A stretch of DNA of 64,000 nucleotides. Source: Dehalococcoidia bacterium (GTDB lineage Bacteria > Chloroflexota > Dehalococcoidia > UBA2979). This document shows positions 293-19,001 of the stretch, one piece after another; positions within the stretch are counted from its first letter, which is position 1; each line of letters opens with the position of its first letter. The stretch is taken from assembly GCA_964291495.2 (NCBI GenBank), contig OZ219871.1, forward strand, positions 416,001-480,000, given 5' to 3'. The notes beneath the pieces were generated by a model. The model worked only from the letters and a program-made list of their open reading frames with translations, was not told where the DNA came from and searched no databases. The position numbers and the translations under genes are program-made.

Positions 293-1228
293 ATCACCAT
301 CGCAACCGAAACCACCACCCCCGACGAGCTGCAGGCGATCTTCGACGCGGTCTCCAACTGGGGCCGCTGGGGCCCCGAGGACGAGCGAGGCGCGCTCAAC
401 CTGATCACCGCCGAGAAGCGCGCCGCCGCGACCTCCCTCGTGCAGGAGGGCGTCACCGTCAGCTGCGCGCTGGAGCTCGCGAAGCACCCGCACGCCGACA
501 ACCCGACGCCCGTGCGGCACACGATGCTCGTCGCCGGCGACATCACCCGGCCTCAGAACCTGCAAGGGTCGAGCGACTACTTCTCGATCGCGCCGCACGG
601 CGTCGCGAACACGCACCTCGACGCGCTGTGCCACATCTTTCGCGACGGCAAGATGTACAACGGCTTCGACCAGGCCGAGGTCACCAGCGTGGGCGCGCGG
701 CGCAACAGCATCATGGCCGGCCGGGACGGCGTCGTCAGCCGCGGCGTGCTGCTCGACATCCCCGCCCTGCACGGCGTGCCCTACCTCGAACTCGGCACGC
801 GCATCACCGTCGAGGACCTCGAGGCCGCCGAGGCGCGCCAGGGCGTGACCGTCTCCGAGGGCGACATCCTGCTGATCTGCATCGGACGCGACGCCCGCCG
901 CGAGGAGCACGGCTACTGGACGTCCGGCATCGACGGCATCGCCGGGCTCTCGGTGACGTGCGCGCCCTGGATTCGCGACCGCGGCGTCGCCGTCGTCGGC
1001 TGCGACGGGATCACGGACGCGATGCCGCACCAGATCGAGGGCTGGGACACGCCGATGCACCAGGTGCTGATCGTCTCGATGGGCATCCACCTGATCGACA
1101 ACATGCAGCTCGGCCGCCTCGCCGCGGCCTGCGAGGAGCGGGGCCGCTGGGAGTTCCTGCTCACCCTCGCCCCGTTACGCCTCGACCAAGGCACCGCCTC
1201 CCCCGTCAACCCGATCGCGATGTTCTAG
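293..1228 (+). CDS. Cyclase/kynurenine formamidase-family metal-dependent hydrolase
   Basis: Motifs NWGRWG..DERGALNLIT, HGxxxTHLDALCH, SRGVLLDIP and GTASPVNPIA. The conserved N-terminus lies upstream of the track start (440). The start is placed at ATC 293, after AGGAGG 281-286, and is uncertain. Confidence 0.85.
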   Translation: MTIATETTTPDELQAIFDAVSNWGRWGPEDERGALNLITAEKRAAATSLVQEGVTVSCALELAKHPHADNPTPVRHTMLVAGDITRPQNLQGSSDYFSIAPHGVANTHLDALCHIFRDGKMYNGFDQAEVTSVGARRNSIMAGRDGVVSRGVLLDIPALHGVPYLELGTRITVEDLEAAEARQGVTVSEGDILLICIGRDARREEHGYWTSGIDGIAGLSVTCAPWIRDRGVAVVGCDGITDAMPHQIEGWDTPMHQVLIVSMGIHLIDNMQLGRLAAACEERGRWEFLLTLAPLRLDQGTASPVNPIAMF

Positions 1229-1264
1229 CCGTAGCTGGAGCGTTTCCGCTCCCTCTCCCCTGGA

Positions 1265-1476
1265 GAGACCTTCGCGTAACCCCCTTCGGGGCAGCGAGCG
1301 CATCCCCTCCGATCCCCTCTCCCCGAGGGAGAGGGTTAGGGTGAGGGAGGATCCGCCCGCTGAGTTTCGTTGCGCCATCGGGGCTTTCGAAGGGGCGCGG
1401 GAGTCCTCCCCTTACCCCCGCCCTCTCCCCAGGGAGAGGGGGCCGGATCAGGCTTGTGGGAGTTCGCAGAGGCCTC
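1265..1476. mobile_element. MITE-like non-autonomous element (copy 1) with internal REP hairpins
   Basis: Imperfect terminal IRs GAGACCTTCGCGTAACCCC ... GGGAGTTCGCAGAGGCCTC. Two internal CCCTCTCCC-GGGAGAGGG hairpins. Colinear homolog at 25545-25760. Confidence 0.65.
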
Positions 1477-1511
1477 GCGGGGAGAGGGGACCGGAGGGTA
1501 CCCTCCCGCCC

Positions 1512-2726
1512 CTACCCCCGCGGCAGGCCGAGGCCGCGCGTGGCGATGATGTTGCGCTGGATCTCGGAGGTGCCCGCGCCGATCGTGTGCGGGATCGTCG
1601 TCAGGTAGCGCTGCGTGAAGTCGGCGCGCGCCGGCGAGCGCTCGTCCTCCGGATCCCAGAGGTTCGAGTAGAGCCCGAACGCGCGCATGCCCGTGCGCGA
1701 GATCGCCTGCAGCGTCTCGCTGATACGCAGCTTGCCCATCGAGGCCTCGTAGTTCGGGATCAGCCCCACGGCCTGCATCGAGATCACGCGCAGCGAGAAG
1801 TTCTCGCAGACCGCCGTGTCGATCGCGCGGTCGGCGATCTCGGCGCGGACGGTCGGCAGGCCGCGCACCGAGCCCGGCGCGCGGGGCTCTTGCACCTCGC
1901 CGAGCAGCTGGTTGAACTGGCGGCGCACGTTCGTCGCCTGGCGCACGCCGGAGCGCTCGAAGTCGAGCAGCGTCATGGCGACGTACCAGCCGCGGTTGAC
2001 GTCGCCCACGACGTTGGTGGCGGGGACGCGCACGTCCTCGAAGAAGACCTCGTTGAAGCCGTGCTCCCAGGCCATGTTGACGAGCGGGCGGACGCTGACG
2101 CCCTCGGCGGTCATGTCGTCGATCAGCAGGAAGCTGATCCCGCGGTGCTTGGGCGCGTCCGGGTCCGTGCGCACCATCGCGAAGATCGCGTCCGCGTGGT
2201 GGCCGTTCGTGGTCCAGATCTTCTGCCCGTTCACCACGTACTCGTCGCCGTCGAGGACGGCGCGCGTCTGCACCGAGGCGAGGTCGGAGCCCGCGCCCGG
2301 CTCCGAGTAGCCCTGGCACCAGACCATCTCGCCGCCGAGGATGCGCGGCAGGTAGGCGCTCTTCTGCGCGTCGCTGCCATGCACGACGAGCGTGGGCGTC
2401 AGCATCTCGACGGAGTGCGAGCTGCCGACGACTGGCGCGCTGACGCGCGCCATCTCCTGGTTGTAGATGAACTGCTCCCACTTGGAGAGGCCGCCCCCGC
2501 CGTACTCGGTAGGAATGTGCGGGGCGACCCAGCCGCGCTCGCCGAGGGCCAGCGCCCACTCGCGGGCGGCCTCGCGGCGCTCCGGCTCAGGCGCCTTGCG
2601 GTCGGCGACCCACTCGTCGGGCGCGCCGGGCGGGCGATCGCGGTAGTGCCTCGGAAGGCGCGCTTCGATGAAGCCGCGCACCTCGCTCCGGAACGCGGCC
2701 TGCTCGGGGCTGTCTTGCCACTCCAT
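1512..2726 (-). CDS. Acyl-CoA dehydrogenase family protein
   Basis: WCQGYSEPGAGSDLAS, NGQKIWTT, FNEVFFEDVRVP, TIGAGTSEIQRNIIA. Confidence 0.95.
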   Translation of the reverse strand: MEWQDSPEQAAFRSEVRGFIEARLPRHYRDRPPGAPDEWVADRKAPEPERREAAREWALALGERGWVAPHIPTEYGGGGLSKWEQFIYNQEMARVSAPVVGSSHSVEMLTPTLVVHGSDAQKSAYLPRILGGEMVWCQGYSEPGAGSDLASVQTRAVLDGDEYVVNGQKIWTTNGHHADAIFAMVRTDPDAPKHRGISFLLIDDMTAEGVSVRPLVNMAWEHGFNEVFFEDVRVPATNVVGDVNRGWYVAMTLLDFERSGVRQATNVRRQFNQLLGEVQEPRAPGSVRGLPTVRAEIADRAIDTAVCENFSLRVISMQAVGLIPNYEASMGKLRISETLQAISRTGMRAFGLYSNLWDPEDERSPARADFTQRYLTTIPHTIGAGTSEIQRNIIATRGLGLPRG

Positions 2727-2782
2727 GGACGTCCTCCTGCGCGGCTAGGGTAGCCGAAACGCGCGAGGGCCGACGCGCCCCT

Positions 2783-3649
2783 TCAGGCGTGAGGCTCGGG
2801 AGTCGCGACCGGCTCCCAGGCGTAGCCCGTCTCGACCCGCCGGACCCGCCCGAGCGTAGGGATGCCGAAGTGGCCGCCCGTCACGAGGGCGTCCCGCGCG
2901 ATCGCCAGCTCGGCGACCTTGCGGCGCGACCGCTCGGCCTCGGCGGGGTCGTGCTCGAGGAAGGTGCGCCACTCCGGCCGCACGACGTGGGCCGGGTGGT
3001 AGGCGACGTCGCCCGTGATCAGCAGGCGCTCGCCACCCGAGGAGAGGAGCAGCGAGCAGTGGCCGGGCGTGTGGCCGGGCGTCGGCACCATCGTCAGCGA
3101 GGGCGAGACTGTCGCCTCACCGTCGACGGGCTCGATGCGATCGGCCTCGTGCGCGGGCAGCACACAGCGCCGCACGAACTCGAGGCGCTGCGGGTCCGCC
3201 TCGGGGCCGAGCCAGTGGTCGAGCTCGGTCCGCGAGACATAGACCGTGGCGTTGGGGAAGGTGAGCGCGTTGTCGCGGTCCTCGTCGATCAGCCAGCCGA
3301 CGTGGTCCGGGTGCAAGTGCGTCTGCACGACGGCGTCGATTTCCTCGAGGGCGACGCCCAGCTCGGCGATGCGCTCGAGCAGCTCGCCGCAGCCCGGTGT
3401 GCCGAGCGTGCGCCCGAAGACGCCGTAGCCGGCGTCGACGAGCGTGGTGCGGCCGTCGCCGCGGATCAGGAAGCTGCCGAGGTTGAACGGGACCGGGTCG
3501 CTCGGGCTCGTGATCCCGACCTCGCGCATCCACTCGGCCGGGTCGGTGCCCGGGAGGTGCCGCTGGAAGTCTGTGACGTCGGGCGCGCTGTCGCTGATCG
3601 CGGCGACCTCGAGCGAGCCGATGCGAACGGTCTCGCTGAGCCTCGACAT
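2783..3649 (-). CDS. MBL-fold metallo-hydrolase (lactonase/YtnP-like)
   Basis: THLHPDHVG, TPGHTPGH, LITGD, GGHF. Start set at MSRLSE (3649). Confidence 0.9.
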   Translation of the reverse strand: MSRLSETVRIGSLEVAAISDSAPDVTDFQRHLPGTDPAEWMREVGITSPSDPVPFNLGSFLIRGDGRTTLVDAGYGVFGRTLGTPGCGELLERIAELGVALEEIDAVVQTHLHPDHVGWLIDEDRDNALTFPNATVYVSRTELDHWLGPEADPQRLEFVRRCVLPAHEADRIEPVDGEATVSPSLTMVPTPGHTPGHCSLLLSSGGERLLITGDVAYHPAHVVRPEWRTFLEHDPAEAERSRRKVAELAIARDALVTGGHFGIPTLGRVRRVETGYAWEPVATPEPHA

Positions 3650-3660
3650 GGGCGGGCGCG

Positions 3661-4491
3661 CTACCCCAGCTCGGCGGCGATGCGCTCGCCCGCCTCGAAG
3701 TCGTCGAGGATCTGCTGGTAGTAGGCCTCGACGGTGGGACGGGTGTGCGGGTGGCTGAAGATGTAGAGCCGGTTCTCGCGCACTGCGGCGAGCACGCGCC
3801 TCGCGACGTCGTCCACGGTCATCGGGTTGGGTTCGCGGGGTACGGGCCGCGGCTGCTCCGGGTAGGGGCCGCCGAAGCGCTCCTGCCGGTTGCGGCCGGA
3901 GTCGCGCATGTTCGTGAGCATCCCGCCCGGGCACCAGCAGGAGACGACGATGCCCTCGGGAGCCAGCTCGTCGTGGAGCACGGCGCTTACGCCGACGAGG
4001 CCGTGCTTGATCGAGGTGTAGATGCCGTTCACGTTCGGCCGCGCCACGAGGCCGGAGACCGAGGCGGTGTTGATGATGTGCCCCGGCCCCTCCTGCTCGC
4101 GCATGCGCGGCACGAAGGCGTAGATGCCGTACATCGGCCCCATCAGGTCGACCGAGGTGAGCCAGTCCCAGTCCTCGTCGGGGGCCTCGGCGATCGGGTT
4201 GCGCTTGCTGACGCCGGCGTTGTTGAAGAGCAGGTTGACCTCGCCGAACTCCTCATAGGCGCGGGCCGCGAGGGCCTCGACGGCGGCGCGGTCGCTCACG
4301 TCGGTCTGCACGGCGATCGAGGCCGCCCCCGCCTCGCGCACCTCGGCAGCCACTTCCCCCGCTGGCCCGGCCTCGATATCGGCGATGACGACGCCACGCG
4401 CCCCCTGGCGCGCGCACTCGAGGGCAATGGCGCGGCCGACGCCGCTGCCCCCGCCGGTGATCACGGCGACGCTGCTAGCGATGTCGGTCAT
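3661..4491 (-). CDS. SDR family NAD(P)-dependent oxidoreductase
   Basis: TGGGSGVG, NNAGV, NTAS, YTSIK (YxxxK). The ATG at 4491 overlaps the upstream stop (ATGA). Confidence 0.93.
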   Translation of the reverse strand: MTDIASSVAVITGGGSGVGRAIALECARQGARGVVIADIEAGPAGEVAAEVREAGAASIAVQTDVSDRAAVEALAARAYEEFGEVNLLFNNAGVSKRNPIAEAPDEDWDWLTSVDLMGPMYGIYAFVPRMREQEGPGHIINTASVSGLVARPNVNGIYTSIKHGLVGVSAVLHDELAPEGIVVSCWCPGGMLTNMRDSGRNRQERFGGPYPEQPRPVPREPNPMTVDDVARRVLAAVRENRLYIFSHPHTRPTVEAYYQQILDDFEAGERIAAELG

Positions 4492-5858
4492 CCTGCGATC
4501 CCTTCCGCCACCGCCCCGGCGGCGATCTCCCGTCCGTCCCACTGATACTTACCCAAGTCGACGCGGCCGTCGTCGCTGACAAGCACGCCCTCCTCGCGGA
4601 GACGCTCGCCCTGATCGCCTCGCGAGTCCGGAGCGCTCAGCTGTCCCTCCGCGTTGATCACGCGGTGCCACGGCACGTCGGTGTCGTCGGGAAGGGCGAG
4701 CATGGCGCCTCCGACCGCCTGTGCCGCATCCGGCGATTCCAGGGCGTCGGCGATCCGCGCGTAGGTCACGACCTGGCCCTTAGGCACTCTCCGGACGTAC
4801 GCCCACACCCGCTCCCAGAAGTTCCCGCTCGGCGACGCGGGATTCCAGTGCTCCAGCGCAGTCTTGACGAACCGCACGAGCCCGGCTCGCCGCTCGCCCC
4901 ACTCCTCCGCGTTGTTGATCCAGAGGGCGTAATCCCTACCATTGTCTTCCGCGCGCCATCTGCACTGGACTGCCTCGGTCCTGAGCGAGTCGAGCGCGTC
5001 CGGGCTGTAGTACGACTCCGGGTACCACCTGACCACCAACCCCGCCTTCTCTTCGACCCAGAGGTGACAGAAGCGACGACGGCCGTTGCCCGCGCGCAAG
5101 CTATAGCTGATTCCCCAGGATCCGTGATTCTGCGCGGAGTCGGGGAGGGATGTCCGTAGCGCCTTGTCAACGTCCTCGAAGAGTTCGGCCAATCCTCGCT
5201 CGACCAGTCTCTCCTGGAGCTCAAGGCGGCGCTCGGCGGCGCTCCGGTAGGTCCGCCGCCCGGTGCGCGCGACCGCGTCCCGTTCGACTTCCACCTGACG
5301 GGCGAGCAATGTCTCGCCGCTGTGCTCGAAGCCGTGGAAGGTGAGCACCGAAATGTCGATGCCGCCCTTTGAGAGGAACCTCGCCATCCGTTCCGCTCGC
5401 TCGTCGGCACCGAGCCCCACAAGCGTGAGTCGCGGCGGCAGGAGGTCGTCGAGTTCGTTTTCGGCGAATCGATCCTGGTACCACTGCTCGAAGCCATCGA
5501 TCTTCTCGATGCCCTCGCTCCCGGAGTGCTCGGTGATGAACTCTGCCAGCTCCTTTGGCGTCATCTCGTCCAGCGCCGAGGCGTAGTCGATGCACTGCGT
5601 CACGGCTTCGCGGGTCAGCTTCTCCCGCTTCAACTCGAACACGACCAGCCGCCCGCCCTGATCGACGCCGAGCAGGTCCAGCGGGCCGCCTTCTGTTGGC
5701 GTCTGTCGCCCGACAAGATGAAGCCCGTTCTCCAGCATCTCGGGGCGGCTGACCAAGGTCGCTTCGAGAATGTCCTCGAGCTTCACGCCCGTCACGCTCT
5801 CAACGGCCTCGACTTCGTTGCCGTCGCGCAGGGCCCAGATCTTGAGTTCATCCGTCAT
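4488..5858 (-). CDS. NucS/EndoMS-like (DUF91) PD-(D/E)XK endonuclease fused to a C-terminal alkyltransferase-like (ATL/MGMT-fold) domain
   Basis: N-terminus: LEDILE..GRQ..GPLDLLGVD..LVVFELK..AVTQCIDY. C-terminus: FWERVWAYVRRVPKGQVVTYARIA..AVGGAM..VPWHRVINAEG..LREEGV. Confidence 0.85.
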   Translation of the reverse strand: MTDELKIWALRDGNEVEAVESVTGVKLEDILEATLVSRPEMLENGLHLVGRQTPTEGGPLDLLGVDQGGRLVVFELKREKLTREAVTQCIDYASALDEMTPKELAEFITEHSGSEGIEKIDGFEQWYQDRFAENELDDLLPPRLTLVGLGADERAERMARFLSKGGIDISVLTFHGFEHSGETLLARQVEVERDAVARTGRRTYRSAAERRLELQERLVERGLAELFEDVDKALRTSLPDSAQNHGSWGISYSLRAGNGRRRFCHLWVEEKAGLVVRWYPESYYSPDALDSLRTEAVQCRWRAEDNGRDYALWINNAEEWGERRAGLVRFVKTALEHWNPASPSGNFWERVWAYVRRVPKGQVVTYARIADALESPDAAQAVGGAMLALPDDTDVPWHRVINAEGQLSAPDSRGDQGERLREEGVLVSDDGRVDLGKYQWDGREIAAGAVAEGIAG

Positions 5859-5870
5859 CTCTTCGCCCCA

Positions 5871-6866
5871 TCACTTGCCGGACAGCGCCAGACGCTCAAC
5901 CTCGGCGACGAACTCGTCGACGCCGATCGAGCCGGGCTCGATGCCGTTGCGGACGCAGTGGTTGGCTGCCTGCTGGAGGGCGCGGTTCCACGGCGTGGGG
6001 ACGCCGTGGAGCGCGCCGATCAATACGATCTCGCCGTTGACGTAGTCCGTCTCCACGCTGCGGTTGCCCCGTTGCACTCCCTGCCAGACAGAGCTGGTGA
6101 ACTCGCCGTGGCCGGGGATCTCGCCCCACTCGAAGCCGGGCGCACGCCCGGCCGCCGCCGACTCCTCGCGTGAGGCGTAGTCGATGCCTGCGGCGTCGAA
6201 GACCGCCTCCGTCTCCGCCTCGAGGCGCGCGCGCAGCGCGGCGGTGTCCGCGCCGGGGCCGAAGACGGCGGGGAAGGCGGCTCCGAGGTTGCGGATCAGC
6301 TTGTGGTACTTCCAGCGCATCACCTGCGCCTCGACCTCGCCGCGGAAGCCGGCGGCTGTCAGGTCGGCGGCGATGGAGCGCACGAGGTTGTCGGCGCCCT
6401 CGGGGTAGCGGCCCATGACCAGCGTGCCGCCGCCGCTCTTGTCGTAGCTGAGCACCAGGCCGGGCTCGACGAAGGAGGTGGCGACGAGCACCTCGACGGC
6501 GTAGACGCGCTCGAAGCGGCGCAGCGCCATGCGCTCGTTCTCGATGCCGTTCTGGGTGCAGACCACGGGCAGGTCGGCCCCGCCGGCCAGGCGCAGCTCG
6601 TCGAGGGCGTCCGTGCAGTCCTGCGATCGCATCGTGAGGAAGACGACGTCGTCCTCCCAGAAGTCGACCTCATGCGGGCTGGCGACGGCGGGGATGCGCA
6701 GCTCGAGCGTGTCGGCGGGCGTCTTGACCGTGAGCCCGCGCTTGCGGATGGCGTCGAGGTGCGGGCCGCGCGCGATCAGGACCACCTCGCGACCGCTGGC
6801 GAAGAGCCGCGCGCCGATGGTGCAGCCGATGCCGCCGGCGCCGTAGATCACGTAGCGGTTGGGCAT
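5871..6866 (-). CDS. Ketopantoate reductase (PanE/ApbA) family oxidoreductase
   Basis: IYGAGGIG, ARGPHL, QNG, WKYHKL, SSVWQ..ETDYVNGEIV. SD GGAGG before ATG 6866. Confidence 0.88.
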   Translation of the reverse strand: MPNRYVIYGAGGIGCTIGARLFASGREVVLIARGPHLDAIRKRGLTVKTPADTLELRIPAVASPHEVDFWEDDVVFLTMRSQDCTDALDELRLAGGADLPVVCTQNGIENERMALRRFERVYAVEVLVATSFVEPGLVLSYDKSGGGTLVMGRYPEGADNLVRSIAADLTAAGFRGEVEAQVMRWKYHKLIRNLGAAFPAVFGPGADTAALRARLEAETEAVFDAAGIDYASREESAAAGRAPGFEWGEIPGHGEFTSSVWQGVQRGNRSVETDYVNGEIVLIGALHGVPTPWNRALQQAANHCVRNGIEPGSIGVDEFVAEVERLALSGK

Positions 6867-7009
6867 GCGTCCTCCCTCGGGCATTGGTAGGCGACGGCGC
6901 GGCGCTTGTCCAGCCTGCGCAGCGCGCGCCGGGGCGCGGATCGCGTCGCCACGACGCGCCGCGTGCTGTAGAGTGCGGCGCGGCAAACACACAGGGAAGG
7001 ACGGCACTC

Positions 7010-8254
7010 TTGACTAAAGGCTCAGGCTTGCTTCGAGGCAAGTACGCAGTCGTCGGCGTTGGCGAGACCGAGTACTCGCGCAACTCCGGGCGCACCACGC
7101 GGCAGATGGGCGTGGAGGCGGTGAAGAAGGCGATCGACGACTCCGGCCTCGACTACAACAGCACCAGTTGGGGCACGACCTGCTACCAGGTCGGCGACGC
7201 AGCCGGCTCGGAGATTGTCTTCTCCGACCTCGGCGTGCGGTTGGACTACCAGGTGGACACCTGGGGCGGCGGGTCGTCCTCGGAGACGCTGATCGGGCTT
7301 GCGATCGGTGCGCTCGAGGCCGGGCTCTGTGACGCGATGGTCGTCTACCGGACGATGAACGGCTTCACGGAGATGCGCATCGGCGGCACGCCCGTGGGCG
7401 CGCCGGCGGGGCCGCCCCCGTTCATGACGCGCCACGGCGACCACACGATGCACAGCCGCATCTACGGCATCGCCAGCGCGCTGCAGAACTTCGGGCTGAG
7501 CTTCGTGCGCCACATGTACGAGTACGGCACCACGCCCGAGCAGCTCGCGCACGTCAAGGTGGCGCACAGCAAGGGCGCCTCCAACAACCCGAAGGCGTAC
7601 TACAAGCAGCGCCTCACCGTCGACGACGTGCTCAACTCCCGCTACATCGTCGAGCCGTTCCACCTGCTCGACTGCTGCGTGGAGACGGACAACGCGACGG
7701 CGATCGTGATCACCAACACGGAGCGGGCGCGCGACCTGCCGAGGCCGAACGTCGCGATCCTCGGAACGGGCGGGCGCACCCACAAGTGGGCGCCCGATTA
7801 CCACTGGGGCCACGGGCCGATCAACCAGGTGGGCGGCATCTACACGAAGGACGTGGTCTTCCCCAACGCCGGCATCGGGCCGGAGGACGTGGACATCACC
7901 GGCTCCTACGACGCCTTCACCTTCACGACGCTGCTGCAGCTGGAGGCCTACGGCTTCTGCCCGATCGGCGAAGGCGGCAACTACGTCTCCGACGGCACCA
8001 TCGAGCTCGGCGGCAAGCGGCCCAACAACCCCTCCGGCGGCCACCTCTGCGAGGGCTACACGCACGGGATGAACATGGTCATCGAGAACGTGCGCCAGCT
8101 CCGCGGCGAGGTCGACGACTACTGCGAGGGCGATCACAGCTACGACTACAGCGAGGGCGCCTGCCGCCAGGTGCGCGATCCGGAGATCACGATGAACCTC
8201 GGCTGGGCCCAGCCGCCGACCGGTTCGTCGCTGGTCATGACGAACCAGGTCTAG
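7010..8254 (+). CDS. Thiolase-fold lipid-transfer-protein/Ltp2-like aldolase
   Basis: AVVGVGET, PFHLLDCCVETD, SYDAFT, NPSGGHLCEGYTHG. No thiolase catalytic Cys. TTG start 7010 after GGAAGG. Confidence 0.88.
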   Translation: MTKGSGLLRGKYAVVGVGETEYSRNSGRTTRQMGVEAVKKAIDDSGLDYNSTSWGTTCYQVGDAAGSEIVFSDLGVRLDYQVDTWGGGSSSETLIGLAIGALEAGLCDAMVVYRTMNGFTEMRIGGTPVGAPAGPPPFMTRHGDHTMHSRIYGIASALQNFGLSFVRHMYEYGTTPEQLAHVKVAHSKGASNNPKAYYKQRLTVDDVLNSRYIVEPFHLLDCCVETDNATAIVITNTERARDLPRPNVAILGTGGRTHKWAPDYHWGHGPINQVGGIYTKDVVFPNAGIGPEDVDITGSYDAFTFTTLLQLEAYGFCPIGEGGNYVSDGTIELGGKRPNNPSGGHLCEGYTHGMNMVIENVRQLRGEVDDYCEGDHSYDYSEGACRQVRDPEITMNLGWAQPPTGSSLVMTNQV

Positions 8255-8284
8255 GCGACCGGCCAGCGAAGAGGAGCAATATCA

Positions 8285-8794
8285 ATGGCTGAATACCTCG
8301 GGGCCGGCGTCTTCGTCCCGGAGAACGACCCGCAGCATCGCGAGTACCTCACGGAGGCCGCCAAGGGCTACCTCCCGCTGCAGCAGTGCGACGACTGCGG
8401 CGCCAGGATCTACCCCGTGCGCACGATGTGCCCGGAGTGTCGCGGCAGCGACATGACCTGGGTTCCGGCATCGGGCAAGGGCACGATCTACTCCTACTAC
8501 ATCGTCCCGCACCCGATTAATCCTGCGTTCAAGGACTTCGTCCCCTACCCGGTCATCCTCGTCGAGCTCGACGAGGATCGCGGGGCGCTGGGCGAGCATC
8601 GCGCGCTGCGGATTGTCGGCAACCTGCTGGGCGAGGACGGCAACCCCGCGCCTCGCGAGGATGTCGCGATCGGCAAGCGCGTCGAGGTCACGATCATCGA
8701 CCTCGGCGACGGGTGGGGGCTGCCGCAGTGGAAGCTCTCCGGCGAGCCGGACGAGCACGAGGCGTGGCAGATCCCGCACAGCTACCCGCCCTAG
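8285..8794 (+). CDS. DUF35 Zn-ribbon/OB-fold protein (thiolase partner)
   Basis: LQQCDDCG..CPECRG, SGKGTIYSY, PYPVILVELDE. Confidence 0.92.
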   Translation: MAEYLGAGVFVPENDPQHREYLTEAAKGYLPLQQCDDCGARIYPVRTMCPECRGSDMTWVPASGKGTIYSYYIVPHPINPAFKDFVPYPVILVELDEDRGALGEHRALRIVGNLLGEDGNPAPREDVAIGKRVEVTIIDLGDGWGLPQWKLSGEPDEHEAWQIPHSYPP

Positions 8795-10893: not shown

Positions 10894-12461
10894 CGCTCGG
10901 GGCGCCCGGCGTGATCGCGCCCGGGACGGTCGTGCGCGCACCCGTCGAGGGGCCGCTCAACATCGCCCGCGCGTGCCTCGAGGCGCGCGCCCGCGACCCG
11001 GCCTTCGCCGACGAGCCGGCGTTCAGCTTCCTCTACGGCGACCGCACGGAGCGCTGGACCTACGCCGAGGCATGGGCGCGCGTGGAGCGCATCGGGCGCG
11101 GGTTGCTGGCGCGCGGCCTGCAGCCGGGCGACCGCGTGCTGGTGCGCACGCCGCACTCGCCGGACTACGCCTTCGCCTTCTTCGGCGCGAACGCCGCCGG
11201 GCTGGCCCCAATCCCCGCTTCGCCGCAGCTGACGCCCGCCGAGGCCGCGTTCCTCTGCGCCGACGCCGAGCCGCGCGCAGCCGTCACCTCAGCCGACCTG
11301 CCGCTGCCCGGCTTCGACGGCCTTCAGATCGACGCCGCCGACCTCGACACGCTCGACGGCGACGCCGCGCTGCCGCAGACCCAGGCCGAGGATCCGGCGT
11401 TCCTGATCTACACCTCGGGGACGCAGGCCAGCCCGAAGGGCGTGCTGCACGCGCAGCGCACCCTCTACGGGCGCGCGCTGATGTGGGGTGCCTGGGAAGG
11501 CTTCGAGGCCGGCGACGTCGCGCTGCACGCCGGGACGCTGAACTGGTCGTACACGCTCGGCGTCGGGCTGATGGACGTCTGGGCGGTCGGCGGGCACGCG
11601 ATGCTCTACGGCGGCCCGCCGGACCCGGCGATCTGGTCTCGGCTGATCGCCGAGCACGGCGTCAACGTCTTCACCGCCGTCCCCACCGTGTACCGCCAGC
11701 TGCTCAAGTACGGGGCGCCCGAGGACACCGACCTCTCGTCGCTTCGTCACTGCCTCTGCGCCGCCGAGCCGCTGCTACCCGCGCTCGCCGACGAGTGGGC
11801 CGCGAAGGTGGGGACGGAGATGTTCGAGGCGCTCGGCATGACCGAGGTCAGCACCTACATCTCCTCGGGTCCGGCGACGCCCGTGCGGCCCGGCTCGCCC
11901 GGACGGCCCCAGCCCGGCCGCCGCGTCGTGATCCTGCCCGAGGACGGCGCTGCGCCGGGCGCGGACCAGCCGCTGCCGCCGGGTGAGGTGGGGCTGCTCG
12001 CCGTCCACCGAACGGACCCGGGCCTGATGCTCGGCTACTGGCGACGGCCGGACGAGGAGGCCTCGGTCTACCGTGGCGAGTGGTTCGCGGGCGGCGACCT
12101 CGCGGCGATGGACGAGGACGGCTACATCTGGTTCCACGGCCGCGCCGACGACGTCATCAAGTCGTTTGGCTTCCGCCTCTCCCCGGTCGAGATCGAGGCG
12201 GCGATCGAGTCCTGCCCCGGCGTCTCCGAGGTCGCCGTCGTCGGCGTGCCGATCGACCCGACGAAGACGCTCGTCACGGCCTGCGTGGTGCCGCAGGACG
12301 GCGTGCGCCTCGAGGAAGACGCGCTGCGGGCGCACGCCGAGGACAGGCTCGCCGGCTACAAGCAGCCGCACGAGTACCGGCTCGTCGACGAGCTTCCGCG
12401 TACGCGCAACGGCAAGGTGCAACGCAAGGTGCTGCTCGCAAGCCTGCGCGGGGACGTGTAG
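10890..12461 (+). CDS. Acyl-CoA synthetase / AMP-binding ligase
   Basis: YTSGTQASPKG, GMTE, GDLA, GRADDVIK, LPRTRNGK. Confidence 0.93.
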   Translation: MTLGAPGVIAPGTVVRAPVEGPLNIARACLEARARDPAFADEPAFSFLYGDRTERWTYAEAWARVERIGRGLLARGLQPGDRVLVRTPHSPDYAFAFFGANAAGLAPIPASPQLTPAEAAFLCADAEPRAAVTSADLPLPGFDGLQIDAADLDTLDGDAALPQTQAEDPAFLIYTSGTQASPKGVLHAQRTLYGRALMWGAWEGFEAGDVALHAGTLNWSYTLGVGLMDVWAVGGHAMLYGGPPDPAIWSRLIAEHGVNVFTAVPTVYRQLLKYGAPEDTDLSSLRHCLCAAEPLLPALADEWAAKVGTEMFEALGMTEVSTYISSGPATPVRPGSPGRPQPGRRVVILPEDGAAPGADQPLPPGEVGLLAVHRTDPGLMLGYWRRPDEEASVYRGEWFAGGDLAAMDEDGYIWFHGRADDVIKSFGFRLSPVEIEAAIESCPGVSEVAVVGVPIDPTKTLVTACVVPQDGVRLEEDALRAHAEDRLAGYKQPHEYRLVDELPRTRNGKVQRKVLLASLRGDV

Positions 12462-12482
12462 CCGCTCCGACCGCGGCAGCAC

Positions 12483-13544
12483 CTACAGCGCCGCGGGCGA
12501 CTCGGCGAAGACGGCAGGCGTGCGGCGCAGCTGCAGCGCGACGCGGTCGAGGCGCGCGAACTCCTCCCCCGGCCCCACGCGGACGCGCAGTTCCTCGCCG
12601 CCGGCAAGGCGCACGTGCAGCATCTGGTCGTGGCCGTAGAACTCGTGGCCGCAGACCTCGGCGGGGGCTCCCTGCTCGCGCAGCAGCACGTCCTCGGGGC
12701 GGATCACGACGGCGCAGCGGCTCGCCCCGGGCGGCGCGGGCAGGTCGCCGAACGGGGTGCGCACGAGGCCGGCGGCGGCGGGCAGCCGCAGCACCATCGC
12801 ATCACCGATGCTCTCCGCGACACGCAGCGTGCCCGGCTCCAGGTAGATCTGCTGCGGCGTGCCGTGCTGCTCGACGCGCCCGTCCCAGAGGAAGGCGACG
12901 CGGTCGGCGATCGAAAGCGCCTCCTCCTGGTCGTGCGTGACCAGGATCGTCGTCGTGCCCGCGCGGCGCAGGATCTCGCGCAACTCGCCGCGCACCCGCG
13001 CGCGCAGCGAGGGATCGAGGTTGGAGAACGGTTCGTCGAGCAGCAGCAGCCGTGGCCGCGGCGCGAGCGCCCTCGCGAGTGCGGTGCGCTGCTGCTCGCC
13101 GCCGGACAGTTCGTGCACGGCGCGCCTGCCGAGGCCGCCGAGGCCGGTCAGCTCGAGCACCTCGCGCACGCGCGCCGCGCGGTCCGCGCCGCGCGGGAGG
13201 CCGTAGGCGACGTTGTCTTCGACGGAGAGGTGCGGGAAGAGCGCGTAGTCCTGGAATACCATGCCCACGCCGCGGCGCTCCGGAGCCACGAACGCGCCCT
13301 CGCCGGCCACGCGCTCGCCGAACAGCTCGATCGCGCCCTCGTCGGGGTGCTCGAAACCGGCGATCAGGCGCAGCGCGGTCGTCTTGCCGGAACCGCTCGC
13401 GCCGAGGATGACGCACAGCTCGCCGGCGGCGACGTCGAGGTCCAGCCCATCGAGCGCCCGCACGCCATCGAAGTTGCGCACGAGGCCGCGCGCGCGCAGT
13501 GCGGGCGCATCGTGAGTCGCGGCACCGGATACGTGCTCAGGCAT
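12483..13544 (-). CDS. Fe3+ ABC transporter ATP-binding protein (FbpC-like)
   Basis: GASGSGKT, LSGGEQQR, LLLDEPFSNLD. Adjacent to an FbpB-like permease. Confidence 0.9.
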   Translation of the reverse strand: MPEHVSGAATHDAPALRARGLVRNFDGVRALDGLDLDVAAGELCVILGASGSGKTTALRLIAGFEHPDEGAIELFGERVAGEGAFVAPERRGVGMVFQDYALFPHLSVEDNVAYGLPRGADRAARVREVLELTGLGGLGRRAVHELSGGEQQRTALARALAPRPRLLLLDEPFSNLDPSLRARVRGELREILRRAGTTTILVTHDQEEALSIADRVAFLWDGRVEQHGTPQQIYLEPGTLRVAESIGDAMVLRLPAAAGLVRTPFGDLPAPPGASRCAVVIRPEDVLLREQGAPAEVCGHEFYGHDQMLHVRLAGGEELRVRVGPGEEFARLDRVALQLRRTPAVFAESPAAL

Positions 13545-15174
13545 CGCGCCTCCAGAGCGTGAGCAACGCGAGTGGGAGGGCGGAGAGCAGGACCAGCAGC
13601 AGCGCGGGCAGCGCGGCACGTGCGAAGAACGCCTCGCTCGAGGCGGCCCACACCTGTGCCGCGAGCGGCTCGAAGCCGATCGGGCTGAGGATCAGGGTCG
13701 CGGGCAGCTCCTTCATCGTGGTCAGGAAGACGAGCGCCATGCCGACGGCGATGCCTCGGCTGGCAAGCGGGAGCGTGATCGAGCCCAGCACCTGCCAGGG
13801 GCGCCGCCCCAGTCCGCTCGCCGCTTCCTCCATCGAGGGGCTGATCTGCAGCAGCGAGGCGCGTGTCGCTCCGAGTGCCTGCGGCAGGAAGAGCAGCGCA
13901 TAGCCCGCCACGAGCAGCCCCAGCGACTGGTAGAGCCAGCCGCCGAACAGCCCTCCGGCGAACGACTCGCCGTGCAGCGCGGCGAAGACGAGCGCCAGAG
14001 CCACCACCAGCCCGGGCAGCGCGAAGCCGCTGTGGCTCAGCAACTCGATCGGCTGCGTCAGCGCGAAGCGGCGATGCCGCGCCGAGAGCACGGCGACGGG
14101 GATCGCGGCCGCCGCCGCGACCAGCGCGGCGAGACCGGAGGCGGTCAGCGAGTCCAGCACCGCGGCGCCCACGCCGTGCAGCGCCTCCCCGGCCGCCAGC
14201 CCGCGCACCAGCCAGAAGCCGAGCAGCGCGAGCGGCAGGGCGAGCGCCAGCGCGAGCAGCCCCGTGACGAAGCCGAACGCCGGCCAGCGCCAGCGGCCGA
14301 GCGGCGCCACCGAGGCGGGACGCGAGCCGGCTCGCGTGCCGTGGTAGCGGCGCTCGCCGCGCGCCCACAGCTCGATGGCGATCAGCGTGAAGGCGATGCC
14401 GATCAGCACGAGCGCGAGGGCCGAGGCCCCTGAGAAGTCGAACCCGGACTCGTAGCGCACGAACAGCGCCCGCGTCAGCGTGTCATAGCGCAACAGCGCA
14501 ACCGCGCCGAAGTCAGAGATCGCATAGAGAGCGACGAGCAGCCCGCCCGCCGCCAGCGCCGGCCGCAACTGCGGCAGGACCACCCGGCGGAACGTGGTCC
14601 AGCGCCCGGAGCCGAGGCCGCGCGATGTCTCCTCGAGGCGCGGGTCCAGGCCGAGCAGCGCGGGACGCAGCGTCAGCAGCAGGTAGGGGTAGGTGAACAG
14701 CGCGAGCACGAGGGTCGCGCCGGGGAAGCCATAGATCGAGGGCAGGCGCTGCACGCCGAGCGGCTCGAGGGCGTCCTGCACCAGCCCCGTCGGTCCGAAG
14801 GCGGAGACCGCCAGCATCGCGGCGATGTAGGAGGGCACGGCGAGCGGCAGCGCGGCGAGAATTCCCAGCGTGCGCCTGGCGGGCAGGTCCGTGCGCGTCG
14901 TCAGCCAGGCGAGCGGCAGCGCGATCGCGGCGGCAAGCGCCGTCGTGCTCGCGGCGAGTGCGGCCGTGCGCAGCGCCAGGCCGAGCGTCGAGCTCGCCGC
15001 GACGGCCTCCCACGCGGCCTCGGGCGACTGTCCCGCCCGGACCAGCAGATAGACGGGCGGGATCGCACAGAGGGCGCCGACCAGCAGGGCGGGCAGCAGG
15101 ATCACCGGCGGCGGCCAGCCGTGGCCGATCAGCGGCGCACGGCGAGCCGGCAGTGCGATCAGCCGCGCTGTCAT
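13537..15174 (-). CDS. Fe3+ ABC transporter permease (FbpB-like)
   Basis: Duplicated permease halves, PLAVPSYIAA, SDFGAV, TMKELPATLIL. Start set at MTARL (15174). Confidence 0.9.
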   Translation of the reverse strand: MTARLIALPARRAPLIGHGWPPPVILLPALLVGALCAIPPVYLLVRAGQSPEAAWEAVAASSTLGLALRTAALAASTTALAAAIALPLAWLTTRTDLPARRTLGILAALPLAVPSYIAAMLAVSAFGPTGLVQDALEPLGVQRLPSIYGFPGATLVLALFTYPYLLLTLRPALLGLDPRLEETSRGLGSGRWTTFRRVVLPQLRPALAAGGLLVALYAISDFGAVALLRYDTLTRALFVRYESGFDFSGASALALVLIGIAFTLIAIELWARGERRYHGTRAGSRPASVAPLGRWRWPAFGFVTGLLALALALPLALLGFWLVRGLAAGEALHGVGAAVLDSLTASGLAALVAAAAAIPVAVLSARHRRFALTQPIELLSHSGFALPGLVVALALVFAALHGESFAGGLFGGWLYQSLGLLVAGYALLFLPQALGATRASLLQISPSMEEAASGLGRRPWQVLGSITLPLASRGIAVGMALVFLTTMKELPATLILSPIGFEPLAAQVWAASSEAFFARAALPALLLVLLSALPLALLTLWRRDA

Positions 15175-15256
15175 CGCCACCCCCGCGTCTGCCTGCAGCG
15201 CACCGGACGCGCTGTCGAGCCTGCCCGAAGAGCATCGTACGGGCGACGGCTCGATA

Positions 15257-15288
15257 TTCGCCACACCTAACGTCGTGAAATCGTACCA
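15257..15288 (-). promoter_or_regulatory. Extended -10 promoter and putative DtxR/IdeR-like iron box
   Basis: On the minus strand, TGGTACGAT is followed by TTAGGTGTGGCGAA, upstream of the iron permease. Confidence 0.35.
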
Positions 15289-15485
15289 GCATTGCTGGCA
15301 ACGCGCGCGCCACACAGGCGGGTAGCGCGCCCGGACTGACGGACCGGCAACGCCGCGGCTATCCGCCGCCGCCAGTCCATCATGGGCAGCGAGGACAGTG
15401 TCCCCCTCGCCAGGCGTGACGCCCGGCCGCGCAGGCCGTACGCTCGGGTCCACGGCGACTGCCGGTGGAGATGGAGGCGCCTTCG

Positions 15486-15599
15486 ATGAACCTGCTCGAG
15501 GATCCCGGCCGCTTCCACTGGAAGTGGATCGCCATCGCCGTGGGGCTGCTGGTCCTCTACGCGATCGAGCGCACGATCCGCACCGGCGGGCTCTTCTAG
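15486..15599 (+). CDS. 37-aa small membrane protein (not in the ORF track)
   Basis: GGAGG 15473-15477, then ATG..TAG encoding MNLLEDPGRFHWKWIAIAVGLLVLYAIERTIRTGGLF. G/C-ending codons and one hydrophobic helix. Confidence 0.6.
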   Translation: MNLLEDPGRFHWKWIAIAVGLLVLYAIERTIRTGGLF

Positions 15600-15643
15600 C
15601 GGCCGCTCTCGAACCGGGCCGATCGAGGCGGAGGGCCGTACCG

Positions 15644-16756
15644 ATGCCGTCTGCCGAATCCCACTCGCCGGTCGAACGCTGGCTGCTCGCGAATGCGCCA
15701 CCCGAGCCGCTCGACTCGGCCCGGGGGCTGTACGAGCGCATGCCTCGCCAGCGCGACGGCCAGCTCCCGTTCGTCGACGTTCCCTACGACCCCCGCCGCG
15801 AGCAGCACTGGGCCGACGCCGCGCGCATCGCCGACTACGTTGCGCACCTCCCGCACGCTCCGTCCGCGCACGCGGGCCGCGCCCCGCGCGTGCTCGACAT
15901 CGGACCCGGCGACGGCTGGCCGTCGCTGCCGATGGCGGCGGCGCGCCCGGACGCCGAGGTGCTGGGCGTCGATCCGTCGCCGCGGCGGGTGCGCACATGC
16001 AGGGCGAACGCGGCGCGGCTCGCACTGGCGAACGCGCGCTTTGCAACCGCGGACGCAGCCGCGCTGCCCCTCGCCGACGGCTCGGTCGACCTCGTGACCG
16101 CGGCGGCATCGCTCGAGGAGGCCGCGGCTCCCGAGGCGGTCTTCGCCGAGCTGCACCGCGTGCTGCGGCCCGGCGGGGCTTTGCGCGCTTCCTACCAGCA
16201 CTGGCGGCTCCCCGCCCCGGAGATCGAGAGCGTGCTGCTCTGGGAGGGCGTCGACGCCGCCTCGCGCCCGATCCGCCTCTACAGCTATGTGCGGCGGCTG
16301 CAGGATCCGCCGCTGGAGCGTCGCTACACCCTCGAGCTCCCCGCCGGGGGCGAGGCGGCGCGGCTGCACCAGCAGGCCCTCGAGGCCGCCGCGCTCGGTC
16401 GCCGCGCCTACGGCGAGACGCTGCTGGCCGGCGCCCCCGCGCTCGGCATCGAGTTGCTCGGACGGCTCGCGCCCCACGCGCGGCACAGCACGGTCGTGGA
16501 GCTGCGGCGCTGGACGACCGCGTGGCTGCGCGAGGCGTTGCTGCGGGCAGGCTTCGACGAGGTGCGTGCGACGGCACATCCGGGCGAGTTGGCGCGCCAC
16601 CTCGGGCGCGCGCTGATCGCGGCCTCGCCGGCTGCCGCCGCCGGGCAGCGCGACGCCCTCGAGGCGCTCGCACGCGGCTTCGGCGACTGGACGGCGCGGA
16701 TCGGCGAGGCCGGCGGGACGCTGCCGGGCGACGGGATGATCGCGGCGGTCGCGTGA
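15644..16756 (+). CDS. Class I SAM-dependent methyltransferase
   Basis: VLDIGPGDG, GVDPS, LPLADGSVDLV, RVLRPGG. Confidence 0.85.
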   Translation: MPSAESHSPVERWLLANAPPEPLDSARGLYERMPRQRDGQLPFVDVPYDPRREQHWADAARIADYVAHLPHAPSAHAGRAPRVLDIGPGDGWPSLPMAAARPDAEVLGVDPSPRRVRTCRANAARLALANARFATADAAALPLADGSVDLVTAAASLEEAAAPEAVFAELHRVLRPGGALRASYQHWRLPAPEIESVLLWEGVDAASRPIRLYSYVRRLQDPPLERRYTLELPAGGEAARLHQQALEAAALGRRAYGETLLAGAPALGIELLGRLAPHARHSTVVELRRWTTAWLREALLRAGFDEVRATAHPGELARHLGRALIAASPAAAAGQRDALEALARGFGDWTARIGEAGGTLPGDGMIAAVA

Positions 16757-16763
16757 GGCGCTC

Positions 16764-17657
16764 TTAGCGCGAGCCCCGGAGGCGCGGGTCGAGCACGTCG
16801 CGGATGACGTCGCCGAGCAGGTTGAAGGCGAGCACCGTGATGGCGATGGCGGTGCCGGCGGAGATCGCCATCCAGGGCTGCTCCTCCATGAAGATGCGCC
16901 CGTCGCGCAGACTGATGCCCCATGAGACGTCGGGCAGTTGGGTGGCGAGCCCGAGGAAGCTGAGCGCGCCCTCGATCAGGATCGCGGCGCCAAAGCCCGC
17001 TGAAATCAGGATCAGGATGACTGGCATCACGTTGGGCAAGACGTGGCGGACCAGGCGTCGGAGCGGGGAGGCGCCGACCACCTCGGCGGCCTCGATGTAG
17101 ACGTTCTCCTTGACGGAGAACACCGCACTTCTCACCACGCGCGAGTTGCTGGCGGAGACGAACACCGCGATCGCGATGACGGCGTTGGTGGTGCTGGGTC
17201 CAATCACGGCGATGATCGCGATCGTCATCATGAGCGCGGGGATCGCCTGGATGGCGTCGACGAAGCGCTGGATGACGAGGTCGGCCGTACCGCCGGCAAA
17301 GCCGCTCACCAATCCGACGATCGAGCCGACGAGGGTGCCGAAGGTGACGGTCAGGAAGCCGGCGTAGATCGAAATGCGCGCTCCCCGGATCAGCCGCGAG
17401 AGCGTGTCGCGGCCGAGGTTGTCCGTGCCAAGCCAGTGGGAACTGCTCGGGCCCTGGTACGTGTCAACCGAGAACTGGGTGAAGCCATATGGGGATATCC
17501 ACGGACCGAGGACCGCGACGAGGACGAGCCCGATGATCACGGCCAGCGAGGCTGCTCCGACCGGCGTCCTGACGATGTTCCACATCGTGTGGACGATCGG
17601 GTTGCGGGCAGGAGTAGCAAACTGCTGAAGCTCCGTGCGGGTTGTGCTCGCGGCCAC
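16764..17657 (-). CDS. Peptide/nickel ABC permease (DppC-like)
   Basis: HWLGTDNLGRD, YIEAAEVVGA, LSFLGL. Confidence 0.93.
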   Translation of the reverse strand: MAASTTRTELQQFATPARNPIVHTMWNIVRTPVGAASLAVIIGLVLVAVLGPWISPYGFTQFSVDTYQGPSSSHWLGTDNLGRDTLSRLIRGARISIYAGFLTVTFGTLVGSIVGLVSGFAGGTADLVIQRFVDAIQAIPALMMTIAIIAVIGPSTTNAVIAIAVFVSASNSRVVRSAVFSVKENVYIEAAEVVGASPLRRLVRHVLPNVMPVILILISAGFGAAILIEGALSFLGLATQLPDVSWGISLRDGRIFMEEQPWMAISAGTAIAITVLAFNLLGDVIRDVLDPRLRGSR

Positions 17658-17671
17658 CGTTGCCCCCTGCC

Positions 17672-18751: not shown

Positions 18752-18950
18752 GCTGCCCCGTCTCGCTGCACTCGATGCTGCCCCCGCCCAAGGGAGCCCC
18801 GCTCGGCCGGGTGGCCGCCGCGGCAATCATAGTACGCCGTGGCCCGGATCGGGGGATTTGCCGGGATCGGGGCCGCGGTGGCCTGCCTCGGTTCCGGATT
18901 CCCGCCCCGCGGGCCGAATCTCGTGAAGGCGGTTCTGCCCCCGAACGAGA

Positions 18951-18977: not shown

Positions 18978-19001
18978 GTGTGTACGGCTTCCCTGCTGCC
19001 G

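Follow-up and report, generated by a model that had tools for sequence, protein, structure and literature searches.

A stretch of 64,000 nucleotides from a Dehalococcoidia bacterium (GenBank assembly GCA_964291495.2, contig OZ219871.1, positions 416,001 to 480,000 of the forward strand), called the window below and used for all coordinates unless a locus is named, encodes a 456-residue protein in which a PD-(D/E)XK nuclease module resembling the C-terminal domain of NucS is followed by a middle domain and by an alkyltransferase-like (ATL) domain with an altered base-binding pocket. As far as its sequence affinities go, the protein is best filed as a nuclease of the Madara/PDC-S11 type that has a different sensor and an additional, re-tuned reader derived from an ATL. 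We give about half of our belief to its being a single-chain, type IV-like defence nuclease in which the ATL domain serves as a specificity module. Its open reading frame (ORF) begins with ATG, with just four open codons upstream of that ATG, and is built as follows.

4488..5858, minus strand: whole ORF, 456 amino acids, comprising nuclease, middle domain, ATL domain and recycled tail.
5274..5858, minus strand: nuclease module, residues 1-195, with a PD-(D/E)XK fold like the NucS C-terminal domain.
5241..5273, minus strand: linker, residues 196-206, with a predicted local distance difference test score (pLDDT) below 50 at residues 196-202 and a mean pairwise identity of 0.35.
4839..5240, minus strand: middle alpha/beta domain, residues 207-340, the presumed sensor of DNA or of its modification, pLDDT 78-94.
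4539..4826, minus strand: ATL domain (MGMT fold), residues 345-440, matched by Pfam DNA_binding_1 and by structure 2kim, with a ratio of non-synonymous to synonymous substitution rates (dN/dS) of 0.20-0.52.
4491..4529, minus strand: tail, residues 444-456, which once formed the C-terminal end of the ketopantoate-reductase-like gene upstream.

An earlier sequence-only reading had proposed a three-part frame of nuclease, middle domain and ATL domain, carrying ELK, QxxxY, PWHRV and AAQAVG motifs. All of these motifs were located in the ORF, the AlphaFold2 model of the 456-residue protein (29 homologues; mean pLDDT 80) shows three separate domains with the boundaries given above, and the Pfam models NucS_C and DNA_binding_1 both score above their cut-offs. 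The same reading had described the C-terminus as an MGMT fold; the domain itself stands at residues 345-440, and the last 13 residues (444-456) lie outside it. Its description of the middle domain as unassigned no longer holds, since this part can now be described as an alpha/beta sandwich with structural matches to the MotA C-terminal domain and to YdhG/YjbR-like proteins. No EndoV family was found among the Pfam matches of the protein at E up to 1. Two weak Pfam matches, DACNG and HSDR_N (E 0.18 and 0.19), fall far below their cut-offs and were set aside as chance, as was DACNG in the one of 102 relatives in which it reaches E 2.9e-4. A homodimer prediction for two full-length copies, made with its own alignment, scored 0.41 against a mark of 0.42, with one control at 0.51, and thus speaks neither for nor against dimerisation.

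The fusion is neither an assembly artefact nor a one-off, the two outcomes that would have deprived the earlier proposal of its object: 43 of the best 120 of 1477 homologue clusters hold both PF01035 and PF01939, at lengths of 430-455 amino acids. Residue counts for fusions given below come from an alignment of 29 of those 43. Relatives are encoded at 15 loci in species-representative genomes, all but one of them in metagenome-assembled genomes (MAGs) of Chloroflexota/Dehalococcoidia type, with two copies in one MAG. A word-based homologue search with residues 340-445, looking for other architectures that carry this type of ATL domain, returned only 10 proteins, all from the same fusion family; as it depends on shared words, it does not argue against the existence of other fusions.

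The cutting module was recognized both by sequence and by fold. Pfam NucS_C matches residues 30-97 (35.2 bits, cut-off 24), a HMMER search of PDB sequences matches P. abyssi NucS (2vld) to the N-terminus at 3e-8, and the same structure aligns with residues 27-177 of the nuclease model at Z 11.1 and a root-mean-square deviation (rmsd) of 2.8 over 105 aligned residues. The catalytic residues and the accompanying motif have NucS counterparts throughout.

5628..5678, minus strand: PD-(D/E)XK catalytic site, D61 with E75-L-K77.
5676-5678, minus strand: D61, opposite NucS D160 in the HMMER alignment.
5628-5636, minus strand: E75-L-K77, with E75 and K77 opposite NucS E174 and K176 in the HMMER alignment.
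5583-5597, minus strand: Q88xxxY92, with Q88 and Y92 opposite NucS Q187 and Y191.

Across 102 representatives of the family D61 and K77 are invariant and E75 is present in at least 90%, and in the fusions the catalytic Asp, Glu and Lys are kept in 29/29, 29/29 and 28/29, respectively. Judged by its alignments, the protein is not a NucS: the NCBIfam NucS equivalog NF003270 reaches 54.3 bits against a cut-off of 216 and covers model positions 118-202 of 250 only, and this alignment leaves the N-terminal DNA-binding and dimerisation domain of NucS missing from the query. The module belongs to the PDC-S11 family, the link to Madara resting on a PADLOC profile. PADLOC model PDLC04916 for PDC-S11 matches at E 7.4e-34, aligning residues 1-200 with positions 1-193 of its 358, and four further PDC-S11 models match the nuclease module at E values down to 2.7e-7. 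None of the PDC-S11 models aligns past residue 200 of the query, so that homology to them was not found in the C-terminal half.

What follows the nuclease module varies widely. HMMER, run exhaustively against 1.84 billion cluster representatives, returned 182 matches with E values of 1e-30 or less and 1545 with 1e-10 or less, mostly of about 350 amino acids. A Pfam scan covered 102 of 150 listed relatives, the short and apparently fragmentary ones being omitted together with P0015, the query's own representative; NucS_C was present in 102/102, with almost no common Pfam domain behind it, DUF4268 occurred in only one, and DNA_binding_1 was found in the query only. When the profile of the fusions was compared with the DUF4268-bearing relative (P0123), residues 3-200 aligned at 60% identity and the alignment then ended. 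As a side observation, the same-genus genomes (G001-G018) mostly encode one to three further paralogues that have only the nuclease module of about 200 amino acids in common (33-42% identity) and carry other C-terminal domains. A related genome (G032) has five matches. In one 448-residue relative (P0130) the nuclease module comes last, behind an N-terminal region that gives weak matches to ParB_N and to winged-helix domains, which makes for yet another architecture with this cutter.

The middle domain probably binds DNA, because it stands where relatives carry an exchangeable sensor. Its best structural match (residues 194-342) is the C-terminal DNA-binding domain of T4 MotA (5jlt; Z 9.2, rmsd 3.3, 102 aligned residues), followed by the YdhG-like 9t2w (Z 9.0) and YjbR (2fki, Z 7.2); these middling Z values, obtained with a predicted model, show an alpha/beta sandwich arrangement and nothing more. 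EVE/PUA-like folds are not among the 50 listed structural matches, though this does not exclude such a fold. For DUF4268 (PF14088), Pfam gave no match in the query up to an E of 1, and the profile alignment to P0123 does not extend past residue 200. The order of secondary structure is alike in the query's middle domain and in P0123, for which the model has a mean pLDDT of 62 and draws on 8 sequences, and four structures (1yb3, 2a8e, 2plg, 4h62) appear in the top-50 lists of both at Z 5.5-8.3, possibly reflecting a common arrangement only. A search of the ESM Atlas with residues 200-345 returned hypothetical clusters with best scores of 0.81-0.82, below the level for more than a lead. The middle domain is also the fastest-evolving part of the protein, with a mean pairwise identity of 0.44 and dN/dS of 0.31-0.56.

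The C-terminal domain matches Pfam DNA_binding_1 (PF01035) over residues 346-425 (E 1.5e-22; 79.7 bits, cut-off 27), and among PDB sequences it matches the V. parahaemolyticus ATL (2kif, 4e-16) and S. pombe Atl1 (3gva, 9e-14). Residues 344-444 of the model superpose on 2kim with Z 16.8 and an rmsd of 2.0, aligning 101 of 102 residues, and identity to known ATLs is 37-38%. The NCBIfam Ogt equivalogs remain far under their cut-offs (for example, 41.8 bits against 192), and the nucleophilic Cys is replaced. Three sites of the domain can be placed against Atl1.

4710..4727, minus strand: AAQAVG, residues 378-383, in which Gln380 replaces the Arg finger (Atl1 R39, human AGT R128).
4659..4673, minus strand: PWHRV, residues 396-400, in which Trp397 replaces the alkyl-acceptor Cys and stands opposite Atl1 W56.
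4629..4631, minus strand: P410, opposite Atl1 R69, the pocket-lid Arg.

According to a review of these proteins (PMC10779285), R39 and Y25 of Atl1 mediate base flipping, W56 and P50 contact the alkyl group and R69 contacts the flipped base; the Arg finger is described there as conserved between AGTs and ATLs, and the AGT/ATL helix-turn-helix as binding DNA without sequence specificity. The Arg-to-Gln change at the finger, which the sequence-only reading had pointed out, is confirmed by the placement of Q380 opposite Atl1 R39 and extends across the family, with Gln in 28/29 fusions and Pro in the remaining one. At the position of Atl1 R69, Arg occurs in 0/29 fusions (Pro 10, Asp 8, Asn 3, Ser 3, Ala 3, Thr 1, Lys 1), and the pocket loop of the fused domains is acidic or neutral rather than basic. 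Y366, aligned to the flipping Tyr Y25, is Tyr in 29/29 fusions, and W397 and R399 are each kept in 29/29. Because the helix-turn-helix, Tyr366, Trp397 and Arg399 are conserved, the domain probably still flips a base; because the Arg finger has become Gln and the pocket-lid Arg is lost, its ligand is probably not the classical O6-alkylguanine. With both the Arg finger and the pocket Arg absent, the domain would not, in functional terms, belong to the ATL family.

Stand-alone ATL genes near related nuclease genes provide a direct comparison. At loci of Tepidiformaceae type, a stand-alone ATL gene of 110-114 amino acids with a PWWRV motif follows immediately downstream of the nuclease gene, both where the nuclease has an ATL domain of its own and where it has none.

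L004:11327-11671: stand-alone ATL gene, PWWRV.
L013:11080-11421: stand-alone ATL gene, PWWRV.
L003:5728-6069: stand-alone ATL gene, PWWRV.
L009:5795-6139: stand-alone ATL gene, PWWRV.
L011:11360-11692: stand-alone ATL gene, PWWRV.

These stand-alone proteins are 46-50% identical to the fused domains and have both AARAVG and, where Atl1 has R69, an Arg. In the genome from which the window comes (93.7% complete) there is no stand-alone ATL gene; it encodes, elsewhere, a canonical Ogt with PCHRV and the Arg finger.

The altered pocket bears on the main rival explanation, a self-contained alkylation-repair enzyme in which the ATL domain would flip O6-alkylguanine or related lesions in the cell's own DNA and the nuclease would nick beside them, replacing the hand-over to UvrABC, in parallel to what has been speculated for archaeal ATL-EndoV fusions. 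Such an enzyme is supported by the genuine ATL character of the C-terminal domain, evident in sequence, in fold and in the retained flipping Tyr and Trp, by the fact that NucS is itself a repair nuclease, and by the discussion of ATL-EndoV and AGT-EndoV fusions as repair enzymes (PMC10779285). We nevertheless consider repair rather unlikely: both arginines suited to the lesion are missing from the fusions and kept in the neighbouring stand-alone ATLs, the canonical Ogt is already at hand in the genome, and the family of the nuclease module is described as having members with demonstrated anti-phage activity.

The loss of the finger and pocket arginines, together with the sequence-non-specific binding reported for the AGT/ATL helix-turn-helix (PMC10779285), would also fit a second alternative, in which the ATL domain is a generic minor-groove DNA-binding add-on or a regulatory lid, serving just to increase affinity for DNA, and the middle domain alone sets a specificity that is the same with and without it. 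Yet 29 diverged fusions show no or almost no variation at Trp397, Arg399, Tyr366 and Gln380, and the dN/dS of the domain fits a conserved pocket rather than a mere clamp, and on these grounds we hold this alternative to be improbable.

Rates of evolution separate the cutter from the putative readers. Within the 29 fusions, mean pairwise identity is 0.74 for the nuclease, 0.44 for the middle domain and 0.57 for the ATL domain, and pairwise dN/dS against five relatives is 0.11-0.23, 0.31-0.56 and 0.20-0.52, respectively. Purifying selection acts on all three domains, with the two putative readers changing 2-3 times faster than the nuclease module. A conserved cutter with fast-evolving readers is the layout of type IV restriction enzymes.

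The ATL domain, moreover, comes and goes. Close relatives that are 77-80% identical lack exactly this domain and keep the residues on either side of it. On a tree of the core (the first 345 residues of 73 proteins, namely P0001-P0075 minus two shorter than 330 amino acids), 43 members have the ATL motif and 30 are without it, and its distribution needs at least 8 changes, 6 of them forced by well-supported branches. One member (P0017) reads like a frameshifted ATL, and some of the losses on the tree may be frameshifts or gene-calling errors. By this reconstruction the ATL domain appears to be a facultative module, repeatedly gained or lost. Its repeated loss from otherwise intact genes is a further point against a repair enzyme; the same frequency of intact-looking ATL-less variants (30/73 in the tree set, one of them at the same locus as the query) favours the generic add-on.

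A second fusion of the nuclease with an MGMT-like domain occurs in the same genus (L040:2277-3629, on G016:C12). It is 450 amino acids long and 31% identical to the query, matches DNA_binding_1 at E 1.7e-8, keeps the Arg finger, has Ala at the Cys position, and is flanked by peptide ABC permease genes and a Fic/DOC-family gene. A 448-residue frame in G008 (L041) that was considered as another fusion was rejected as an ordinary Ogt in an over-long frame.

The gene sits on an insertion that can be delimited by comparison with genomes of the same genus.

4531..5893, minus strand: inserted segment, 1363 bp, absent from three same-genus genomes.
4488..4491, minus strand: ATGA overlap of the ORF stop with the probable true start of the downstream short-chain dehydrogenase gene.

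In DNA alignments, homology to the empty site stops at 5894 and resumes at 4530 (at 4526 for G004). Because the upstream ketopantoate-reductase-like gene of the empty-site genomes ends in a peptide identical to the last 13 residues of the query, the cassette must have landed inside the end of that gene: window positions 5871-5893 now provide the upstream gene with a new C-terminal end, and the inserted ORF closes with the 13 codons and the stop that once ended that gene. The downstream dehydrogenase has retained its ATGA-coupled start, and its tblastn alignments set in with the residue encoded at 4491. The ketopantoate-reductase-like gene lies 12 nt upstream of the ORF, and the short-chain dehydrogenase downstream is followed by genes for a metallo-beta-lactamase-fold protein and for an acyl-CoA dehydrogenase. 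Inspection of the insert junctions by eye showed no target-site duplication, a promoter and terminator scan of 1200-8400 gave no promoter-like site and terminator-like sites at chance level, and there are no tRNA genes in the window.

A close homologue is present in 4 of the 18 other same-genus genomes. At the site of the query gene, two of them (G002, G017) carry the fusion and G009 an ATL-less form; in G008 the fusion lies at another site. In three (G001, G004, G010) of five same-genus genomes checked for an empty site the flanking genes abut, with flanking proteins 86-96% identical; in the other two (G006, G013) the upstream gene was not matched at E up to 1e-30. Where the gene is present it is 72-80% identical, with flanks at 80-96%, and its G+C content at third codon positions (GC3) is 0.83, as against about 0.93-0.97 for most neighbouring genes. 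The recycling of the tail accounts for its presence in the ATL-less allele of G009 and shows that this allele arose by a clean in-frame internal deletion of residues ~341-438, after the insertion. The gene thus behaves as an accessory gene with presence/absence polymorphism, and its patchiness within the genus and its place on an insertion cassette count against a repair function.

One might also take the gene for a passenger, neutral or in decay, that came in with the cassette and makes a product without a function at present. Broken relatives exist (the frameshift-like ATL of P0017 and a copy in G066 that is in two pieces with a stop), and the gene has inserted into the end of a metabolic gene. 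We regard this as very improbable in view of a frame that is intact in the window and in most relatives, a dN/dS well below 1 in all three domains, and invariant catalytic residues.

Two other parts of the window also depart in composition. The segment 16764-22958 (minus strand), with a lower GC content of 64-66%, encodes an ordinary peptide ABC transporter with two permeases and two family-5 solute-binding proteins, and is not a mobile element. At 50055-53135 (plus strand), a protein of 1026 amino acids with a GC3 of 0.83, below that of its neighbours, consists almost entirely of leucine-rich repeats; it is eukaryote-like and unusual for a bacterial genome.

The sequence-only reading had left two functional options side by side, a type IV-like restriction enzyme and a self-contained alkylation-repair enzyme. 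We favour the first over the second because of the PDC-S11 match, the swapping of sensors behind the nuclease module, the polymorphism of the insertion cassette, and the gain and loss of the ATL domain. The place of one homologue (L014) between transposases and a type I restriction-modification operon, the record of PF01035 on GmrSD type IV enzymes, the purifying selection on every domain and the canonical Ogt elsewhere in the genome speak for it as well. The defence role, the dependence on modification and the division of labour between two readers are what we infer from this material. In such an enzyme the N-terminal module, in which D61, E75 and K77 are all present, would do the cutting. 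The middle domain, given its position, fold resemblance and rapid evolution, would help to choose the target. The ATL domain would be an added second reader, docking in the minor groove and flipping a base into its pocket. Its ligand would probably be a modified base of another kind in foreign DNA, guanine-like or a purine, and binding of that base would license or position the nuclease.

Several observations weigh against a type IV-like defence nuclease. The PDC-S11 profile matches the N-terminal half only, so that the sensor is not that of Madara. Plasmid and phage collections held no fused homologue; their 31 and 4 matches, respectively, were partial and to one domain, and none covered 80% of the query. 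We also surveyed the neighbourhoods of 16 loci (113 ORFs, up to 4 per side, called with our own GC3-based ORF picker, which is imperfect), and found mostly housekeeping genes rather than defence islands, a point that also counts for the repair explanation. The commonest neighbour families are acyl-CoA dehydrogenase (10) and AIM24, thymidylate kinase, phosphatase/R3H ATPase and PNPOx (6 each). Clear defence genes flank the homologue in only 1/16 loci, L014, where it lies in a mobile/defence island (L014:405-9096 and 12129-20772) with Mutator-family and DDE transposases on one side and, on the other, a type I restriction-modification operon of HsdM, a KAP-family NTPase, HsdS and HsdR. Serine recombinases, a reverse transcriptase and a Cas1-like match lie nearby at a few other loci.

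The adjacency of nuclease and stand-alone ATL genes belongs among these points. The Tepidiformaceae-type nuclease is always directly upstream of a canonical stand-alone ATL gene and could equally be linked to alkylation repair. The stand-alone ATL occurs in 19/30 relatives of one Tepidiformaceae-type genome (76-99% identity), with one more at 51%, and in 8 of the 20 genomes that hold it a family nuclease lies directly upstream, in forms that are fused and intact, split by a single stop, broken, or equipped with another sensor. At L013 and in G077, a stop codon and a few bases are all that separate a 354-residue core from the ATL. This adjacency is the strongest argument for a functional link between nuclease and ATL, and hence for the repair explanation. 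The resident ATL gene may also be the sign of a variable insertion site, and the captured domain is likely to have come from it.

Type IV restriction enzymes consist of a cutter and an exchangeable reader of modified bases, and the readers known so far (SRA, EVE/PUA, winged-helix, DUF4268 and others) are for the most part directed at modified pyrimidines. The MGMT/ATL fold is, to our knowledge, known only from DNA repair. We entertain as possible, if doubtful, that anti-phage immunity has taken over this fold and uses it to read, by base flipping, purines of phage DNA that carry a natural hypermodification. The Gln finger and the acidic pocket loop would then replace two Arg suited to O6-alkylguanine, and, by way of speculation, a 7-substituted 7-deazaguanine or a 2-amino-purine analogue would be candidate ligands. 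Were this so, the ATL fold would gain a role outside repair, its immune role would be new, and the modules of type IV enzymes would include, in the ATL-derived reader, one that flips bases and is directed at purines; the stand-alone ATLs beside related nucleases would mark the site of domain capture, and the alleles with and without the ATL domain at one locus would represent a single restriction enzyme in versions of different specificity. If instead the repair explanation were true, the fusion would be a bacterial one-protein alternative to the hand-over from ATL to excision repair. The family offers natural experiments in the form of close ATL-plus and ATL-minus alleles at the same chromosomal site and of fused Gln-finger copies beside neighbouring stand-alone Arg-finger copies.

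The claim that this architecture is uncharacterised stands for the exact fusion, and a literature search found no publication combining 'alkyltransferase-like' with 'type IV restriction'. It does not stand for the parts: the two-domain core was characterised in 2025-2026, PF01035 had been seen on GmrSD in 2015, and ATL-EndoV and AGT-EndoV fusions were already known. The nearest system is Madara, PDC-S11 of E. coli ECOR34, which is reported to restrict T4 with glucosyl-hydroxymethylcytosine and not cytosine T4, and to have an N-terminal NucS-like PD-(D/E)XK domain and a C-terminal sensor, with D63A abolishing defence (bioRxiv 10.64898/2026.09.05.749240). Like Madara as described there, the query is a single chain running from a NucS-like nuclease through a linker to a sensor, and the catalytic Asp is at nearly the same position (D61 here, D63 in Madara), an equivalence drawn from position only. 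Unlike it, the query matches the profile only to position 193 of 358, and its middle domain best resembles MotA C-terminal-domain and YjbR-like folds, the sensor of Madara being described as EVE-like. Madara has no ATL domain and adjoins BREX in an AT-rich island, whereas the query gene lies between metabolic genes.

MdgA and MdgB are described as modification-dependent nucleases with DUF4268, MdgB being confined to Actinomycetota and Acidobacteriota and MdgA inactivated by E77A (bioRxiv 10.1101/2025.02.28.640651). They are single-gene systems reported to restrict modified T4 but not T4-GT7, with E77 as the catalytic Glu of MdgA; residue equivalences between MdgA and the query are drawn from position only. 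Compared by description, they resemble the query in that its family includes DUF4268-bearing members such as P0123, and differ from it in that neither Pfam nor profile comparison detects DUF4268 in the query.

Among repair proteins, the query shares with Atl1, YbaZ and the V. parahaemolyticus ATL the fold, the PWHRV motif with Trp for Cys, the flipping Tyr and the helix-turn-helix, and departs from these stand-alone ATLs in its fusion to a nuclease, its Gln finger and the absence of the pocket-lid Arg. The known ATLs are presented as lesion sensors that recruit nucleotide excision repair, and the archaeal ATL-EndoV and the AGTendoV of Ferroplasma acidarmanus are discussed as repair enzymes in the same review (PMC10779285). 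Both of these fusions place an AGT/ATL-fold domain and an endonuclease in one chain, as the query does; their nuclease, however, is endonuclease V, and the AGT part of AGTendoV is given as an active transferase. With NucS/EndoMS the query shares the catalytic C-terminal fold with its D...ExK and QxxxY motifs, but not the NucS N-terminal domain.

A 2015 survey of GmrSD type IV enzymes lists DUF4268 and DNA_binding_1 (PF01035) among their extra domains (PMC4619093). That survey contains neither an analysis of the Cys/Trp or Arg-finger positions nor experiments. The cutter of GmrSD is of the DUF262/DUF1524 type (ParB-like, HNH) and not PD-(D/E)XK, and the reported hosts are mainly Streptomyces; an MGMT-type domain nevertheless stands on a modification-dependent enzyme there as it does in the query. 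MGMT-type domains thus recur together with modification-dependent nucleases whose cutters are unrelated.

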